Below, one piece after another: positions 20,498-25,200 of a stretch of 40,480 bases of DNA (the first letter of the stretch is position 1; every line of letters starts with the position of its first letter). Location: positions 1 through 40,480 of IMG/VR virus record IMGVR_UViG_2718218098_000005, one strand, 5' to 3'. Below the pieces are notes generated by a model, which worked only from the letters and a program-made list of their open reading frames with translations, was not told the origin of the DNA and did not search any database. The translations under genes were made by a program, and so were the position numbers. The stretch comes from a virus. Taxonomy: Duplodnaviria > Heunggongvirae > Uroviricota > Caudoviricetes.

Positions 20498-20848
20498 TCA
20501 ATTGATGCGTTCGCGCGCTGTTTTTGCTTTATGGCAGGGCCAGCACAGACTCTGCAGGTTACTGTCTGCATCCGTGCCACCATGAGCTTTCGGAATGATG
20601 TGGTCCACAGTTCTGGCTTCAACGGCTCTCCCATTGCGCAGGCAGTTCTGACACAGATGATTATCACGCTTCAGTATGCGCGCACGTATGGCATCCCATT
20701 TCGAGCCATAGCCACGCTGGTGGCGACTCAGTCCGCGTTGATGCTGTACCCATCCTTCGCCACGATGTTTATCGCAGTAACCAGAACTGTCGGTGGTTGT
20801 ACCTGCGCATCCACGCTTACGGCAGGCACGTGGGATTCGTGATGGCAT
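20498..20848 (-). CDS. HNH endonuclease (terminase-associated)
   Basis: Cys-rich N-terminus and ..DHIIPKAHGGTDADSNLQSLCWPCH.. HNH motif; located just upstream of terS as in HK97 gp74. Confidence 0.85.
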   Translation of the reverse strand: MPSRIPRACRKRGCAGTTTDSSGYCDKHRGEGWVQHQRGLSRHQRGYGSKWDAIRARILKRDNHLCQNCLRNGRAVEARTVDHIIPKAHGGTDADSNLQSLCWPCHKAKTARERIN

Positions 20849-20855
20849 AAATACC

Positions 20856-21056
20856 TCATACCCTGTTCAGTTTAATGACGGGCTGATTCTCGATATGTTC
20901 TGCTGTCAGTCTGAAAGTCACTGTGACTGTTGGTAGCTCGCCTCCGCGTGACTCTGTTCTTGCGGAAAGCTGCCCTTCCAGTAACTCACCATTAACTGCA
21001 ATCCCATAACCTACGAAATGTTTACCACGATAAAGTTTTGCCAGTTGGTAATTCAT
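20856..21056 (-). CDS. Hypothetical protein (66 aa)
   Basis: ATG at 21056 with AGGAGG 6 nt upstream; no domain recognised. Confidence 0.5.
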   Translation of the reverse strand: MNYQLAKLYRGKHFVGYGIAVNGELLEGQLSARTESRGGELPTVTVTFRLTAEHIENQPVIKLNRV

Positions 21057-21142
21057 TTGCATCCTCCTGCAAAAATCCAGTTCGTGATGTGCATAAAAAA
21101 GCCCCGCGTATGTGGGGCTAATGATTGCAGGGATTTATTGTC

Positions 21143-21445
21143 TCAGTCTAATTTAATAAGTTTTACAGGTTTCTCTCCTGCATCTACGCACCAGTTGTTG
21201 TACTCATGTACAGCCCGCATCAACTCACCATCATAATGACCAACCTTCTCTACAAGATCCGTAAGCGATTGGGGATTAAATTCAACAATTTCAGGTGGGA
21301 CGAGATTCACATTCCCTTTCTGATGAAGGGCATAGACCGCAGTACGCAGATCACCAATAGCTTTCATTCGTTCAGCATAAAGGTCCTTGATCTTTTCATT
21401 GAGAATTTTGCAGCGACCAATTGCTTCATAATTCAGTTCAGACAT
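21143..21445 (-). CDS. Hypothetical protein (100 aa)
   Basis: ATG at 21445 (MSELNYEAIG) with AGGAGG 4 nt upstream. Confidence 0.55.
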   Translation of the reverse strand: MSELNYEAIGRCKILNEKIKDLYAERMKAIGDLRTAVYALHQKGNVNLVPPEIVEFNPQSLTDLVEKVGHYDGELMRAVHEYNNWCVDAGEKPVKLIKLD

Positions 21446-21527
21446 TTTGCCTCCTGTTTTCAATGGAGATATTCAGGCCAATAGCATTATCGCAGCCCCT
21501 CTCACTGAAGGGGTGCTATAATACCTG

Positions 21528-21824
21528 TTACTCAGTAACTACCGCACCTTCCGGTAATTCCATACCAGCAAATACCGGACAACCAGGATGACGATCATCT
21601 TCTGTTGCTTCCAGCATTGACTCACCAAACCACTCCGTCGTGGCGCGACCATCAGCTGCTTTGTAGTGGATCAAGTACTGGTTTTCGCCATCCGCATACT
21701 GCGCACGGGCTTTAACCTCACCCCATTCATCACTGATGCGCATCTCCACCAGTTGAGACAACTCAAACTTAAACGGAGCAGCATCAGCACCAATTACAAT
21801 CGGTTTGTTTTCTGTTTTTTCCAT
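21528..21824 (-). CDS. Hypothetical acidic protein (98 aa)
   Basis: Tandem ATGs at 21827/21824 after AGGAGA; no domain recognised. Confidence 0.55.
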   Translation of the reverse strand: MEKTENKPIVIGADAAPFKFELSQLVEMRISDEWGEVKARAQYADGENQYLIHYKAADGRATTEWFGESMLEATEDDRHPGCPVFAGMELPEGAVVTE

Positions 21825-21998
21825 CATCGTCTCCTGATATTGAAGCCCGTCGCCGCACCGGGCACTGATCAACATTTGAGTATTCGCGGCGACAGAAAGA
21901 ATTTATTTTATTGAGTAGCCACAAACACAGAATTTCATGCTTTCTGGACACTGGCGCATCCTTCATTTTTCAGCAAAATATTCTGCTATTACAGGCGA

Positions 21999-22154
21999 TC
22001 AGTTCTGCATACACTGCCGAACACCGTCGACAATTTCACAGACCTGAGAAGCTGTATCGAAAAGCTGGCGCGCCTTATTCAGGCTGACGCATCCCACCAA
22101 TAAAAAAGGCACCAGTATCGCTACCAGTGCCCATTTCGCTGCCGTTCGCGGCAT
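21999..22154 (-). CDS. Small lipoprotein (lipobox LLVGC), possible lysis accessory
   Basis: Signal peptide MPRTAAKWALVAILVPFLLVG-C; directly after endolysin; alternative start ATG 22181. Confidence 0.5.
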   Translation of the reverse strand: MPRTAAKWALVAILVPFLLVGCVSLNKARQLFDTASQVCEIVDGVRQCMQN

Positions 22155-22195
22155 TCTATGTGTCCAGTGTTTTCGACTCATAACTCGCCCGGCTA

Positions 22196-22573
22196 TCAGC
22201 GTTTCAATTGGAAGTGCGGCCCGTCCTTCAGCGTTTTCCAGTCCCCGCCCCATTCGATGGCGACTCCCAGCTCTGCGGCAGCCTGCTTAAATGCCTGTGC
22301 GATTTTCTCGTACAGAGGCCAGTCCCATGACACCTGGCTGTCAACATAAGCCACAACATCCACAGCATCACCGGTCAGGTGGCGGCTGTTCATGGTCTGG
22401 CTTTTCCCTTCCGCGACCAGCTGTTTCTGGCGTTCTTTCGTGCGCAGCCCTTCCGTAATACCGAAATCAACCTCCGTCAATTCCAGCGCACGGCGAACGA
22501 CAGCAACCAGCTGTGGTTTGACGCCCTCCAGATTTTTTTTACTGCGACGACTGAATCTGAATTTACCCGACAT
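22196..22573 (-). CDS. Endolysin, peptidase M15 family (L-alanyl-D-glutamate peptidase type)
   Basis: Zn-ligand motifs SRHLTGDAVDV and DGPHFQ; RBS GGAGGTGA; follows two membrane proteins. Confidence 0.8.
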   Translation of the reverse strand: MSGKFRFSRRSKKNLEGVKPQLVAVVRRALELTEVDFGITEGLRTKERQKQLVAEGKSQTMNSRHLTGDAVDVVAYVDSQVSWDWPLYEKIAQAFKQAAAELGVAIEWGGDWKTLKDGPHFQLKR

Positions 22574-22575
22574 GC

Positions 22576-22851
22576 TCACCTCCGGAATGAAAGGATTTTT
22601 GAAACGTTCCCGCGTGCGCGTATTACCAGCACGCAGAACAGCAGATTAAGCCCCACCGCCAGCCAGTTCGCCGCTAACGGGCGACCGCACAGATAGCTGA
22701 GTGGTGCAAAGGCATACAGCAGCATCAGCAGCCAGGCCAGCCATGACATCAGCGGTTTGTGTCTGGAATCACGGCGACGATAAAAAAAGAGCGTCAGCAC
22801 GATAACCGTGCATAACGCTACATTCAGCAATCCGGGAATGTTACTTAACAT
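22576..22851 (-). CDS. Membrane protein (91 aa, 2-3 TM), holin/antiholin-like
   Basis: ATG 22851 with GGAGGAGG 5 nt upstream; hydrophobic segments; between holin-like gene and endolysin. Confidence 0.6.
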   Translation of the reverse strand: MLSNIPGLLNVALCTVIVLTLFFYRRRDSRHKPLMSWLAWLLMLLYAFAPLSYLCGRPLAANWLAVGLNLLFCVLVIRARGNVSKILSFRR

Positions 22852-23233
22852 TGCCGCCTCCTCCACCCCGCAGACGGGAGAACAGGCCGGACACCAGTGA
22901 TGCAATATCCTGCTGGTGGATGAACGAGAGAATCTTCACCGACACCACTGACACCAGCACTGCACACAGTGCGTCGACAGGCGCACCGTCAAACCCTGTA
23001 TGCTTTACCAGCCAGGATGCCAGAACCTCTGCGCCCAGCACGCCGATAATGAACGACACCAGAAAATGCGCCGCCACACGCCAGGCTGAAAGCGCCTGCG
23101 GCATCGTTGCCACAAATAACGCCCCGGCGAACGCACCAAACACAATCCCGAAATCCGTTCCGGTAAACAGCCCGAATACCGTCGCCCCGCCGAGCGCCAC
23201 AGCCGTGCCGGAACCGGATAAGGGTTCAGACAT
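22841..23233 (-). CDS. Putative holin (130 aa, Gly/Ala-rich TM segments)
   Basis: ATG 23233 (MSEPLSG) with AGGAG 8 nt upstream; first gene after terminator; multiple TM segments. Confidence 0.6.
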   Translation of the reverse strand: MSEPLSGSGTAVALGGATVFGLFTGTDFGIVFGAFAGALFVATMPQALSAWRVAAHFLVSFIIGVLGAEVLASWLVKHTGFDGAPVDALCAVLVSVVSVKILSFIHQQDIASLVSGLFSRLRGGGGGNVK

Positions 23234-23250
23234 ACTTTTTTCTCCTGTAA

Positions 23251-23274
23251 ATAAAAAAGGGCCACCAGCGGCCC
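23251..23274 (-). terminator. Intrinsic terminator immediately upstream of lysis genes (tR'-like)
   Basis: Minus strand GGGCCGCTGGTGGCCC followed by TTTTTTATTT, then RBS and holin ATG. Confidence 0.6.
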
Positions 23275-23553
23275 GTAAAAAACACCCCGTCAAAAGCACC
23301 GGCATCCGCAGATGCCCTTTGCGTGGCGTTATTTGATGCGCGCCAGATGTGGCGCAAAGAAATGAAATAAGACTTATCGGAAATTAAGGTTAATTTGAGG
23401 ATTTAAACCACTTCTGAAGCTTAGTAGTATGAACATGTCCCCGGAAGGGGGCCAATACTTATTATTCTTCATGGACTTTGTCCCGCGGTCTTAATCCGAC
23501 GACCGCGCTACTTTTCACCCTCTCGCAAATTGCTATCCAAAGGACGTTGTCCC

Positions 23554-23586
23554 ACGAGTATTCCTGGATGCTCGTGTCTTTTTTTG
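23554..23586 (+). terminator. Plus-strand hairpin + T-run (weak terminator candidate)
   Basis: CACGAG-12 nt-CTCGTG followed by TCTTTTTTTG. Confidence 0.35.
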
Positions 23587-23601
23587 TCCTGAGAAAGGAA
23601 T

Positions 23602-23990: not shown

Positions 23991-24065
<75 letters not shown>

Positions 24066-24068
24066 ATA

Positions 24069-24144
<76 letters not shown>

Positions 24145-24146
24145 AC

Positions 24147-24223
24147 TGGACCGCCACCGGGGACTCGAACCTCGCACACTCAACTTAAAGTGTTGACGCT
24201 CTTTCCTGATGAACTAGTAGCGG
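24147..24223 (-). tRNA. tRNA-like, probable anticodon TTT (Lys) with C33
   Basis: Acceptor CCGCTAC/GTGGCGG, 5-bp anticodon stem TCAAC/GTTGA, loop ACTTTAA, T-loop TTCGAGT, CCA encoded. Confidence 0.5.
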
Positions 24224-24224
24224 T

Positions 24225-24300
24225 TGGTGGCCCTGGCTGGATTTGAACCAGCGACCTGGCGATTATGAGTCGCTCGCTCTCACCACTGAGCTAAAGGGCC
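24225..24300 (-). tRNA. tRNA-Ile2-like (anticodon CAT; ileX/ileZ type)
   Basis: Strong similarity by recollection to E. coli ileX; anticodon loop CTCATAA; CCA encoded. Confidence 0.8.
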
Positions 24301-24498: not shown

Positions 24499-24527
24499 AA
24501 TATATGCCTTTCAATCTACTTTTGCAA
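24499..24527 (-). promoter_or_regulatory. Candidate late promoter overlapping 3' end of Q-like gene
   Basis: Minus strand TTGCAA-17 nt-TATATT; Q stop codon lies between the two hexamers. Confidence 0.4.
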
Positions 24528-25200
24528 CACTTTGCTTTGAAAATACCGCCTTTTGTTTTGAACGTGTTCTCATTACAAACAATAAAGCCTCACTATCCAG
24601 TCGGTGAAAAATGTGTTTCAATGCAACCCAGTGACGAGTAAATGTTTTGGACCAGTTTTTAGTTGTCACTCCCGCCAGTAATGCCAGCTCCTGGTATTCA
24701 TAACCTTCCCCACCAAAAAGTTCTGCTTTTACTGCCTGCGCCGCCAGCCAGATTAATTTTTTCAGGCGTTCCTGCGTTTTCCCTGCAATTTTTCTGGTAC
24801 CGGGTTGAGTATTAAATTCATTCCACGCCCACTGTGTTATCGCGATCTGATATGCCCAACAAATATTCCCGCTGTAACACCACAGCAACCAGGCTTTATG
24901 ATGTTCTTCAAGAGACAGAACAGCCCGCCGCCACGATGATGTCGAAAACTCAACCGGACTGACCAGAGGAATTGACGTCCCCTTCGCCAGCGATTGCTTC
25001 CCCGGGATTGGTGGATTATCCCGCGTTATCATTTTTCCAGTCGCTTCATCGCGGTACCGGATTTTTTTTCGCCTGTAACGCCCTGTATCGAACATGGCAT
25101 TCTCTTGCCAGGCTTCAAGCTGACCTTTTGTTGCCGCACTCAAATCAGCGGTAGCGATAATGAGCTGCTCACGCACAAACTGTAAATACTGGTTATTCAT
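24511..25200 (-). CDS. Putative late antiterminator Q (QuuQ-like)
   Basis: 229 aa; position between rusA and late promoter/lysis region as in Qin; ATGA overlap with rusA stop; family not verified. Confidence 0.55.
   Translation of the reverse strand: MNNQYLQFVREQLIIATADLSAATKGQLEAWQENAMFDTGRYRRKKIRYRDEATGKMITRDNPPIPGKQSLAKGTSIPLVSPVEFSTSSWRRAVLSLEEHHKAWLLWCYSGNICWAYQIAITQWAWNEFNTQPGTRKIAGKTQERLKKLIWLAAQAVKAELFGGEGYEYQELALLAGVTTKNWSKTFTRHWVALKHIFHRLDSEALLFVMRTRSKQKAVFSKQSVAKVD

Follow-up and report, generated by a model that had tools for sequence, protein, structure and literature searches.

What are the three small genes that lie between the lysis cassette and the HNH-cos-terminase region of an E. 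coli prophage of the phiP27/HK97-like type? The window, that is, the whole stretch of 40,480 nucleotides that was analysed (IMG/VR record IMGVR_UViG_2718218098_000005), carries them on the minus strand as ORF1, ORF2 and ORF3 (Table 1). The first-pass annotation had placed them in the late operon, just upstream of HNH, cos and terminase and co-oriented with the late genes. The RefSeq annotation of an identical prophage in E. coli M19 agrees: its gene order is Q antiterminator, tRNAs, two holins, M15 endolysin, lipoprotein ORF, ORF1-3, HNH, TerS (P27 family), TerL and portal. The packaging module of the window comprises an HNH gene with a Pfam match, a P27-family TerS, TerL and portal, and its cos region, at about 20427..20436, is homologous to the annotated cos of phiP27. 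Two elements had been overlooked at first pass: ORF2 and ORF3 are separated by an intrinsic terminator (21119..21100), and ORF1 is followed by a long hairpin.

Table 1. Coordinates of the features discussed (positions in the window)
Feature	Position	Strand	Remarks
Small lipoprotein ORF (phrog_7528)	21999..22181	-	60 aa from 22181 or 51 aa from 22154; lipobox LLVGC; 5' part of the ORF1 block
Spacer, lipoprotein ORF to ORF1	21828..21998	-	171 nt; conserved with both flanking genes
ORF1, phiP27 L33 (P27p33) / phrog_1935 family	21528..21827	-	98/99 aa; likely start 21824
Long RNA hairpin directly 3' of the ORF1 stop	21483..21525	-	RNA fold; no U-tract
ORF2, Salmonella phage ST64B Sb55 / phrog_4827 family	21143..21445	-	100 aa; AGGAGG 4 nt upstream of the start
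Intrinsic-terminator-like element between ORF2 and ORF3	21090..21119	-	AGCCCC-loop-GGGGCU then UUUUUUAU; fold/terminator scan
ORF3, phrog_10235 family	20856..21056	-	66 aa; stop 7 nt from the HNH start codon
HNH endonuclease gene, packaging module	20498..20848	-	Pfam HNH, E 2e-16; annotation; synteny

Three genuine genes that do not form a set

All three ORFs are real genes: they encode proteins and evolve under purifying selection. They match PHROG families with E values of 1e-60 (ORF1), 5e-43 (ORF2) and 3e-30 (ORF3), homologues of each are found across Enterobacterales, and the dN/dS ratios calculated against the window copy are about 0.02-0.2 for ORF1, 0.03-0.05 for ORF2 and 0.1-0.25 for ORF3. 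The view that these are genuine, uncharacterised genes is thereby borne out, as is the claim that each has a good ribosome binding site, Shine-Dalgarno sequences being present upstream of ORF1 (AGGAG), ORF2 (AGGAGG) and ORF3 (AGGAGG). The start of ORF1 is more likely the second ATG, at 21824 (98 aa), than the first, at 21827 (99 aa), because the AGGAG (21835..21831) lies 6 nt from the former and 3 nt from the latter, and because RefSeq gives 98 aa. As to ORF3, the start taken at first pass (21062) directly abuts the AGGAGG (21068..21063) and is hence unlikely; the likely start is 21056 (66 aa), since it lies 6 nt after the Shine-Dalgarno sequence and agrees with RefSeq and with the 66-aa homologues.

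That none of the three shows an assignable motif also stands. Searches of Pfam, NCBIfam, PADLOC and the PDB sequences with ORF1-3 returned no match (for the PADLOC defence models, at E values up to 1), scans of the whole homologue sets against families yielded noise only, and Rfam gave no match over the ORF1-3 region and the spacer. No search gave confident homology to a packaging or lysis accessory protein already known, and no study of these genes was found in the literature on sb55 and ST64B or on a link between HspQ and phages. The three families are themselves already in public databases (phiP27 L33, ST64B Sb55, PHROGs 1935, 4827 and 10235). Their products, small soluble proteins devoid of catalytic motifs, most likely act by binding other proteins: ORF1 would bind as an acidic, SH3-like and HspQ-like barrel, ORF2 as a hairpin of helices whose C-terminal peptide is invariant, and ORF3 as a small, probably beta-rich domain.

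What had to be given up is the treatment of the three genes as one set. The three families differ in distribution and in the genes that flank them; among 5426 complete E. coli genomes, all three ORFs occur together in only 5, and ORF1 with the spacer in about 300.

ORF1 and the block in which it travels

Along its whole length, ORF1 shares 98% identity with L33 of phiP27 (NP_543085). The annotated phage protein (115 aa) extends further at the N-terminus; this extension has no ribosome binding site in the window. Both genes are placed alike, after the lysis genes and a small lipoprotein ORF (L32 in phiP27) and upstream of HNH (L34), but L33 is separated from HNH by 61 nt, whereas in the window ORF2, the terminator and ORF3 are inserted between the two. 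The spacer of about 170 bp that had been noted on the lysis side of ORF1 does exist, and extends from the stop of the lipoprotein ORF (21999) to ORF1. Lipoprotein gene, spacer, ORF1 and hairpin make up a conserved block of about 700 bp (22181..21484), whose downstream boundary falls at 21484/21485 in about 80 loci and coincides with the 3' end of the hairpin. ORF1 travels with the upstream lipoprotein gene as one block ending in the hairpin. The spacer is, in addition, an insertion hot spot in relatives, in some of which the stretch from about 21920 to 21840 is replaced by an insert of about 620 nt, and its RNA fold is weakly better than that of shuffled sequences (z -2.0).

It had been suggested that the spacer could hold an internal promoter. 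This was not confirmed: scanning the coding strand from 20300 to 23600 for the sigma-70 consensus produced no match at 9/12 or more and, at 8/12 or more, no sensible match in the spacer or immediately before ORF2 or ORF3, consensus scans of this kind being liable to miss weak or non-sigma-70 promoters.

The ORF1 product is acidic (20 D/E versus 9 K/R) and carries a conserved C-terminal motif, HPGCPV. It is predicted to fold as a six-stranded SH3-like barrel, for which the top fold match is HspQ, and the predicted barrel superposes on HspQ (PDB 5ycq). A local motif, Y...G....W/Y..E..L...D.HP..P, can be aligned between ORF1 and E. coli HspQ, which is likewise acidic. These features could be taken to mean that ORF1 is an HspQ-like adaptor, a phage copy by which, late in infection, the AAA+ proteases of the host (Lon, ClpS/ClpAP) are retuned; proteins with a YccV-like domain are described in two papers (PMC6719616, PMC7647994) as modulators of Lon, ClpS and ClpXP. 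However, Pfam, the YccV-like model included, gave no match, at E values up to 10, to ORF1 or any of 50 homologues, a PDB profile search with ORF1 did not retrieve HspQ, and hhalign of the ORF1 alignment (A1) against E. coli HspQ returned a probability of 1.5%. A genome scan for HspQ relatives returned sequences that were all at least 85% identical. No sequence homology between ORF1 and HspQ is detectable, and ORF1 lacks the long HspQ loop and has the HPGCPV tail of its own. SH3-like barrels are very common. The predicted resemblance is one of fold level only.

The same protein might instead be an accessory of the lysis cassette. Among the phages examined, those of Enterobacter, Edwardsiella and Salmonella have a gene of this family directly after the spanin genes or one small gene later, and an E. 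coli phage has it inside its lysis cassette; in more distant phages it is located within lysis cassettes or other late operons, or at their 3' ends. Yet it also occurs between gpM and gpL in a Yersinia P2/HP1-like phage, its core domain is found among the tiny early-region genes of Burkholderia phage Bcep176, and the end of a lysis cassette is simply a place where cargo inserts. ORF1 itself is soluble and acidic, with no transmembrane segment, lipobox or Pfam/PHROG lysis match, and its tie to lysis cassettes is a matter of position only. Whether as lysis accessory or as protease adaptor, this assignment of ORF1 seems to us quite improbable. The predicted HspQ-like fold nonetheless gives a concrete, testable lead for a widespread late phage protein. 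The families of ORF1 and ORF3 were also compared and are unrelated.

ORF2, ORF3 and the packaging HNH gene

ORF2 is 86% identical over 100 aa to Sb55 of Salmonella phage ST64B (NP_700428), which is encoded in a P27/HK97-like genome, at its right end, with the HNH gene sb56 following 60 nt downstream. Unlike the window, ST64B has a KilA-N gene (sb54) upstream of Sb55, and neither ORF1 nor ORF3. The predicted structure of ORF2 (AF2 pLDDT 88) is an antiparallel two-helix hairpin (H6-43 and H58-86) with an invariant tail, AGEKPVKLI, after the second helix; two cysteines, Cys12 and Cys86, are conserved, and the family alignment (A2) has 30 invariant columns. The protein is very strongly constrained. 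The fold search returned generic coiled-coil matches only, and PDB matches to a stathmin-like designed repeat and a circular tandem repeat protein were discarded as compositional, because their total score sums many weak stretches over repeated helices. ORF3, for which 45 representatives of the family were found and an alignment (A4) was made, is probably a small all-beta domain with the signature QLAKLYRGxxFxGYGIAVDGxLL...

The module next to which these genes lie is of the HK97 gp74 type, with HNH by cos, TerS, TerL and an HK97-type portal, protease and capsid. From work on HK97 gp74, HNH proteins reportedly assist terminase in cos cleavage in such phages; to our knowledge, the HNH-terminase system has not been described as including any small partner protein. 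ORF3, possibly with ORF2, could be such a partner, of either the nuclease or the terminase, and might control nicking by HNH at cos, shift the specificity of terminase, or act as an immunity-like inhibitor made together with the nuclease. What prompts this idea is the company that the two families keep. An HNH gene lies within 800 nt downstream of ORF2 in 37 of 44 loci, at a gap of tens to hundreds of bases, and ORF3 is within 200 nt of HNH in 58 of 79 (ORF3 then HNH in 48, HNH then ORF3 in 10), counts that overstate the number of independent events because many of the synteny loci are closely related prophages. The adjacency of ORF3 and HNH survives over 44-97% ORF3 identity and covers at least two HNH subtypes, including the 112-aa HNH of Proteus. 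ORF2 and ORF3 together flank HNH in a Proteus locus (L011) and in L142, L148 and L155-L159, so that the arrangement extends to Proteus-type and other divergent phages. The frames of ORF3 and HNH are separated by +7, +8 or +2 nt or overlap by 13 or 4 nt, gaps and overlaps being seen in both gene orders, and no terminator follows ORF3, which runs into HNH; frames that overlap or nearly abut suggest coupled translation. By its sequence arrangement, ORF3 would share with nuclease-immunity pairs this coupling of a small gene to a nuclease gene, but no match between ORF3 and immunity protein families was found in Pfam, PDB or NCBIfam. Finally, the strong constraint on ORF2 (dN/dS about 0.03) would fit a partner of this kind, and in four loci of one lineage its homologue lies within the head gene block, between the major capsid gene and the gp6 head-tail connector gene. 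This is the kind of position held by lambda FI, between the capsid and the head-tail connector/closure genes, whereas ORF2 of the window is by HNH. Homology between ORF2 and lambda FI was considered and rejected (hhalign probability 0.6%), and similarity in sequence to any solved protein is likewise missing.

Against a partner of HNH or terminase stand phages that do without one. PhiP27 has ORF1 only, and in the isolated phage phi467 the order is S-R-Rz-HNH, with none of the three genes. Among 75 IMG/VR loci whose HNH is 90% or more identical, 59 carry none of them, 9 have ORF3, 6 have ORF1 and 1 has ORF2. The families of ORF2 and ORF3 are habitual neighbours of gp74-type modules and yet absent from most near-identical ones, and it follows from the modules free of both that nuclease and terminase work in their absence. 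ORF1, ORF2 and ORF3 are all dispensable, and since 79% of the near-identical HNH modules lack them, a core role in packaging is excluded. Moreover, some ORF3-family genes are 0.3-3 kb away from the nearest HNH, with glycosyltransferase-like cargo in between, and the adjacency, where it exists, could be positional, the gap between lysis and terminase genes being short and a known site for cargo. Taken together, a partnership of ORF3 or ORF2 with HNH or terminase is unlikely, and a modulatory role of the two genes in packaging is a lead only.

One can also imagine that ORF3, perhaps with ORF2, is an optional and so far unrecognised part of HNH-dependent cos packaging, a small protein produced together with the nuclease and tuning nicking or terminase specificity or being loaded into the capsid with the DNA; it might, for example, help to resist the hijacking of packaging by cos-type satellites. 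If this were true, the patchy distribution, together with a strict HNH linkage that spans deep divergence and both orders, would mark an arms-race accessory and not a core part; we regard the idea as doubtful. It is worth keeping in mind that two small families, one of them under very strong constraint, habitually flank the packaging HNH gene in HK97/P27-like phages across Enterobacterales and are yet optional. Should ORF2 or ORF3 act on HNH or terminase, a regulatory layer would be added to a system described as HNH, TerS and TerL.

A probable cargo slot on the late transcript

The reading that we prefer, with a probability of about 0.6, is that the right end of the late operon contains a variable cargo slot, filled in the window by three independently acquired accessory genes that are read from the Q-dependent late transcript. 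As no promoter match of their own was found, ORF1-3 would be transcribed by polymerase antiterminated by Q, running through the hairpin and the terminator, and their products would therefore be made late, alongside the lysis and packaging proteins. As matters stand, ORF1-3 are ordinary cargo of a temperate phage, genes with hypothetical products. The terminator after ORF2 sits uneasily with cargo on a late transcript; it is what a moron transcribed on its own would be expected to have.

One or more of the genes could indeed be classic morons, expressed from the repressed prophage to the benefit of the lysogen, for instance by excluding other phages or altering host physiology, with ORF2 and its terminator as the best candidate. 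The morons of lambdoid phages are extra genes such as bor and lom of lambda (a definition taken from the HK97/HK022 comparison). Like them, ORF1-3 are present in some only of otherwise collinear prophages and are inserted between functional modules. ORF2 is followed by a good intrinsic terminator and ORF1 by a hairpin. The slot also receives other genes: in one relative it holds a secreted FaeG/K88-like protein, and upstream of ORF3 in other prophages it holds a reverse-strand acetyltransferase. However, ORF1-3 differ from morons in that no sigma-70-like promoter was matched upstream of any of them on the coding strand, in that they are always co-oriented with the late operon, and in that they are often fused translationally in relatives, through start and stop codons that overlap. 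In Hafnia and Proteus phages the ORF2 homologues come without this terminator, and the defence models of PADLOC gave zero matches. Expression as morons appears a rather unlikely alternative for any of the three.

If the genes are late-transcribed cargo, one may guess, at low probability, that ORF2 and ORF3 modulate head filling or the action of HNH and terminase, or get packaged with the DNA, and, as another guess of low probability, that the target of ORF1 is a host factor, modulated late in infection. A toxin-antitoxin pair formed by ORF2 and ORF3 was considered and dropped: the two mostly occur apart, and both the terminator and a recombination junction lie between them, homology with other prophages that carry ORF3 and HNH beginning just downstream of the terminator, at a junction about 30 nt upstream of ORF3.

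Gene map and reality of the three ORFs

The window, a prophage of E. coli, has the Stx2e phage phiP27 among its relatives, and this stretch is 100% identical in five mouse isolates (M6, M9, M11, M15 and M19). The gene map (see table) is the RefSeq annotation of the identical prophage converted to window coordinates, all relevant late-region genes lying on the minus strand. The gap between the endonuclease gene HNH and TerS contains a cos-like sequence homologous to the annotated cos of phiP27; together with the RefSeq gene order, this bears out the first-pass annotation, which had placed three small genes (ORF1, ORF2 and ORF3) in the late operon just before the HNH/cos/terminase junction. Between Q and the holins, four tRNA-like genes stand in a row (Rfam, 65.6, 54.8, 33.3 and 64.7 bits), of which RefSeq annotates just two, tRNA-Gly and tRNA-Ile.

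All three ORFs exist, each with a strong Shine-Dalgarno site as had been noted, but the start codons called for ORF1 and ORF3 need correction. In ORF1, AGGAG is separated by 3 nt from one ATG (21827) and by 6 nt from a second (21824), which is the RefSeq start; the AGGAGG of ORF3 abuts the ATG at 21062 and is 6 nt from that at 21056, the start used by RefSeq and all 66-aa homologues. ORF1, ORF2 and ORF3 match PHROG families without assigned function (phrog_1935, 1e-60; phrog_4827, 5e-43; phrog_10235, 3e-30), and their homologues form 109, 28 and 6 clusters, respectively, at 90% identity, a profile search with ORF3 yielding 45 representatives. Relative to the window copy, dN/dS is about 0.02-0.2 for ORF1, 0.03-0.05 for ORF2 and 0.1-0.25 for ORF3; synonymous sites of ORF2 are saturated, yet protein identity is still 86-89%. 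Judged from their sequences, the three are genes, not chance ORFs. Databases already list the families as hypothetical proteins, and no match to Pfam, NCBIfam, PADLOC or PDB sequences was found for any of them, in keeping with the earlier remark that they show no assignable motif.

Coordinates of the features discussed
Feature	Sequence	Positions	Strand	Source or remark
Q antiterminator	window	24511..25200	-	RefSeq
tRNAs	window	about 23991..24300	-	RefSeq
Four tRNA-like genes	window	23994..24300	-	Rfam
Two holins	window	22576..23233	-	RefSeq
M15 endolysin	window	22196..22573	-	RefSeq
Lipoprotein ORF, 51 aa	window	21999..22154	-	RefSeq
Lipoprotein ORF, 51 or 60 aa	window	21999..22181	-	
Terminator-like hairpin, T-run	window	22107..22132	-	
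Spacer	window	21828..21998	-	171 nt
Swapped spacer part	window	about 21840..21920		L222, L224, L227, L230, L232, L233, L240
ORF1	window	21528..21824	-	RefSeq
Conserved ORF1 block	window	22181..21484		
Long hairpin 3' of ORF1	window	21525..21483		
ORF2	window	21143..21445	-	RefSeq
Intrinsic terminator after ORF2	window	21119..21100		
ORF3	window	20856..21056	-	RefSeq
HNH	window	20498..20848	-	RefSeq
cos-like sequence	window	about 20427..20436		
P27-family TerS	window	19869..20351	-	RefSeq
TerL	window	18112..19869	-	RefSeq
Portal	window	downstream of TerL	-	RefSeq
Antisense promoter-like match	window	20345..20374	+	TerS start
Antisense promoter-like match	L016	4829..4858		TerS start
Antisense promoter-like match	L019	5786..5815		TerS start
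Secreted protein, 274 aa	L163	4691..5515		
HNH and ORF3-family gene	L011	4342..4895		Proteus
Capsid-block ORF2 homologue	L139	4001..4306		also L140, L141, L147
ORF3 domain with tail tip	L242	4962..5855		PF09327
ORF3 domain and following ORF	L072	4001..5755		weak glycosyltransferase match

Acquisition, dispensability and transcription

Comparison with relatives indicates that the three genes are separate acquisitions. Among 5426 complete E. coli genomes, only 5 have the entire 1.1 kb, and about 300 the ORF1 and spacer part. Of the three, phiP27 carries ORF1 alone (L33, 98% identical), 61 nt from HNH, whereas the window has ORF2 and ORF3 in between. In 80 IMG/VR contigs with ORF1, a conserved block begins where the lipoprotein ORF starts in its 60-aa form and stops exactly where the long hairpin 3' of ORF1 ends. 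Many relatives have 450-600 additional bases upstream of this block, from endolysin to lipoprotein gene, and the downstream content varies (HNH directly, a secreted protein or other sequence); at one locus, the slot right after the hairpin holds a 274-aa secreted protein whose signal peptide and overall appearance suggest a putative FaeG/K88-like fimbrial subunit. Homology with other ORF3-HNH prophages starts about 30 nt upstream of ORF3, just 3' of the terminator that follows ORF2. The interval thus holds at least three junctions. Part of the spacer between lipoprotein ORF and ORF1 is swapped for a ~620-nt insert in several relatives, so that the spacer is itself an insertion point.

For this module, all three fall outside the core lysis and packaging genes, since the isolated Stx phage phi467, whose HNH region shows 98.5% DNA identity, passes directly from Rz to HNH and lacks all three, as do 59 of 75 IMG/VR loci (HNH at least 90% identical, with enough upstream sequence) within 1.5 kb of HNH; ORF3 occurs in 9 of the 75, ORF1 in 6 and ORF2 in 1. 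Mosaic cargo of this kind is typical of a module boundary in a lambdoid phage, so that the finding is real but ordinary; what the analysis adds are the boundaries, folds for two of the proteins, the terminator and the synteny of ORF2 and ORF3 with HNH.

The internal promoter once suggested for the spacer is unsupported: no sigma-70-like site was found at 9/12 matches on the coding strand of 20300..23600, nor at 8/12 in the spacer, a search that weak promoters could escape. An Rfam scan of the ORF1-3 interval returned nothing, and the spacer RNA folds only slightly better than shuffles (z -2.0). A reading of the three genes as morons, expressed in the lysogen, we consider improbable. In lambdoid phages, a Q-modified transcript is expected to pass hairpins and terminators. 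By analogy, the simplest reading is that ORF1-3 would be read from the Q-modified late transcript, running through the hairpin and the terminator. Three different phages share a promoter-like match (CTGACA-18 nt-AATCAT) that spans the TerS start codon in antisense; conservation of the TerS start ATGTCAGG most likely accounts for it.

ORF2 and ORF3 beside the packaging genes

We propose that the interval is a cargo slot, whose three occupants would be late-expressed, optional, small binding proteins. ORF2 is modelled (pLDDT 88) as a hairpin of two antiparallel helices carrying a conserved tail, AGEKPVKLI, and fold searches returned nothing beyond generic coiled coils. Its alignment (27 sequences, E. 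coli to Proteus) has 30 invariant columns. Salmonella phage ST64B has an 86% identical protein, Sb55, whose gene is found at the right genome end, 60 nt upstream of the HNH gene sb56. An HNH gene lies within 800 nt downstream of the ORF2 family in 37 of 44 loci, and within 120 nt in 27 of these 37. In four related contigs, a copy 68-71% identical sits between HK97-type major capsid and gp6-like connector genes, not next to HNH; two distant copies lie elsewhere, one (L160) adjoining an antirepressor gene. No window-type terminator was found 3' of the Hafnia and Proteus copies.

Among 79 IMG/VR loci (44-97% identity to ORF3), ORF3 precedes HNH by at most 200 nt in 48 (gaps mostly +7, +8, +2 or -13 nt), follows HNH, mostly with a 4-nt overlap, and precedes TerS in 10, and has HNH 0.3-3 kb downstream, past glycosyltransferase-like cargo, in 15; HNH was not found in two loci that extend 1.5 kb or more downstream and in four that extend less far. 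The HNH-linkage loci include many close relatives, so these counts overstate independent events. A 66-aa ORF3 gene 7 nt before HNH also occurs in E. coli prophages with lambda-type S/R/Rz and a reverse-strand acetyltransferase upstream. Proteus phages have the order ORF2 homologue, a different 112-aa HNH, directly a 70-aa ORF3-family gene, and TerS; this HNH has no precomputed Pfam hit, and the gene caller's table gives no family for these three genes. The gene order ORF2 ... HNH-ORF3-TerS recurs in several other divergent contigs. The linkage to HNH is kept in different lineages, with different HNH subtypes and in either gene order.

The common domain of the ORF3 family (~60 residues, QLAKLYRGxxFxGYGIAVDGxLL...; C-terminally extended in some members) also ends two 284-293-aa proteins, behind a tail-tip-like (PF09327) segment. 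These ~290-aa genes and 97-aa ORF3 variants all have an HNH and a terminase downstream of them, and are followed by a 486-488-aa ORF which, in L072, matches glycosyltransferase family 2 weakly (E 0.003, short of the Pfam cut-off).

Given the HNH linkage of both genes, the place of ORF2 within the capsid block of one lineage and its very strong constraint, ORF2 and ORF3 would most likely act in head filling or the HNH-terminase step, which we offer as a lead; a direct HNH or terminase role is, taken by itself, unlikely. The remaining probability goes to ORF1-3 being accessory, with no target assigned.

ORF1 and the lipoprotein gene

The AlphaFold model of ORF1 (50 homologues) is confident (pLDDT 88), with six strands, and predicts an SH3-like barrel that resembles HspQ most. 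Since sequence methods give no link to the YccV-like family, we speak of resemblance and not of membership of that family; hhalign against E. coli HspQ gives a probability of 1.5%, although the aligned residues have the pattern Y...W/Y..E..L...D.HP..P in common. According to two papers, YccV-like domains modulate Lon, ClpS and ClpXP (PMC6719616, PMC7647994). The HspQ-like fold suggests that ORF1 might bind a host factor, such as an AAA+ protease adaptor site, although we regard this as very unlikely.

ORF1 homologues are always oriented as the late genes, and their position varies: right after the spanin genes (one Enterobacter P2-like and one Edwardsiella lambda-like prophage), after Rz (Salmonella P27-like prophages, one with a small gene in between), before a CHAP endolysin (another E. 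coli prophage), between gpM and gpL (a Yersinia P2/HP1-like prophage) and, as a 58-aa core domain, among tiny genes (Burkholderia phage Bcep176).

The lipoprotein ORF (lipobox LLVGC; phrog_7528), 3' of the M15 endolysin and linked to ORF1 in the conserved ~700-bp block, has a mature part of about 30 aa with three Cys. Neither an i-spanin partner nor a C-terminal transmembrane segment was seen for it, and the lysis cassette of the window therefore seems to be without a canonical spanin pair. The terminator-like hairpin within its signal-peptide coding part is probably a coincidence of coding sequence.
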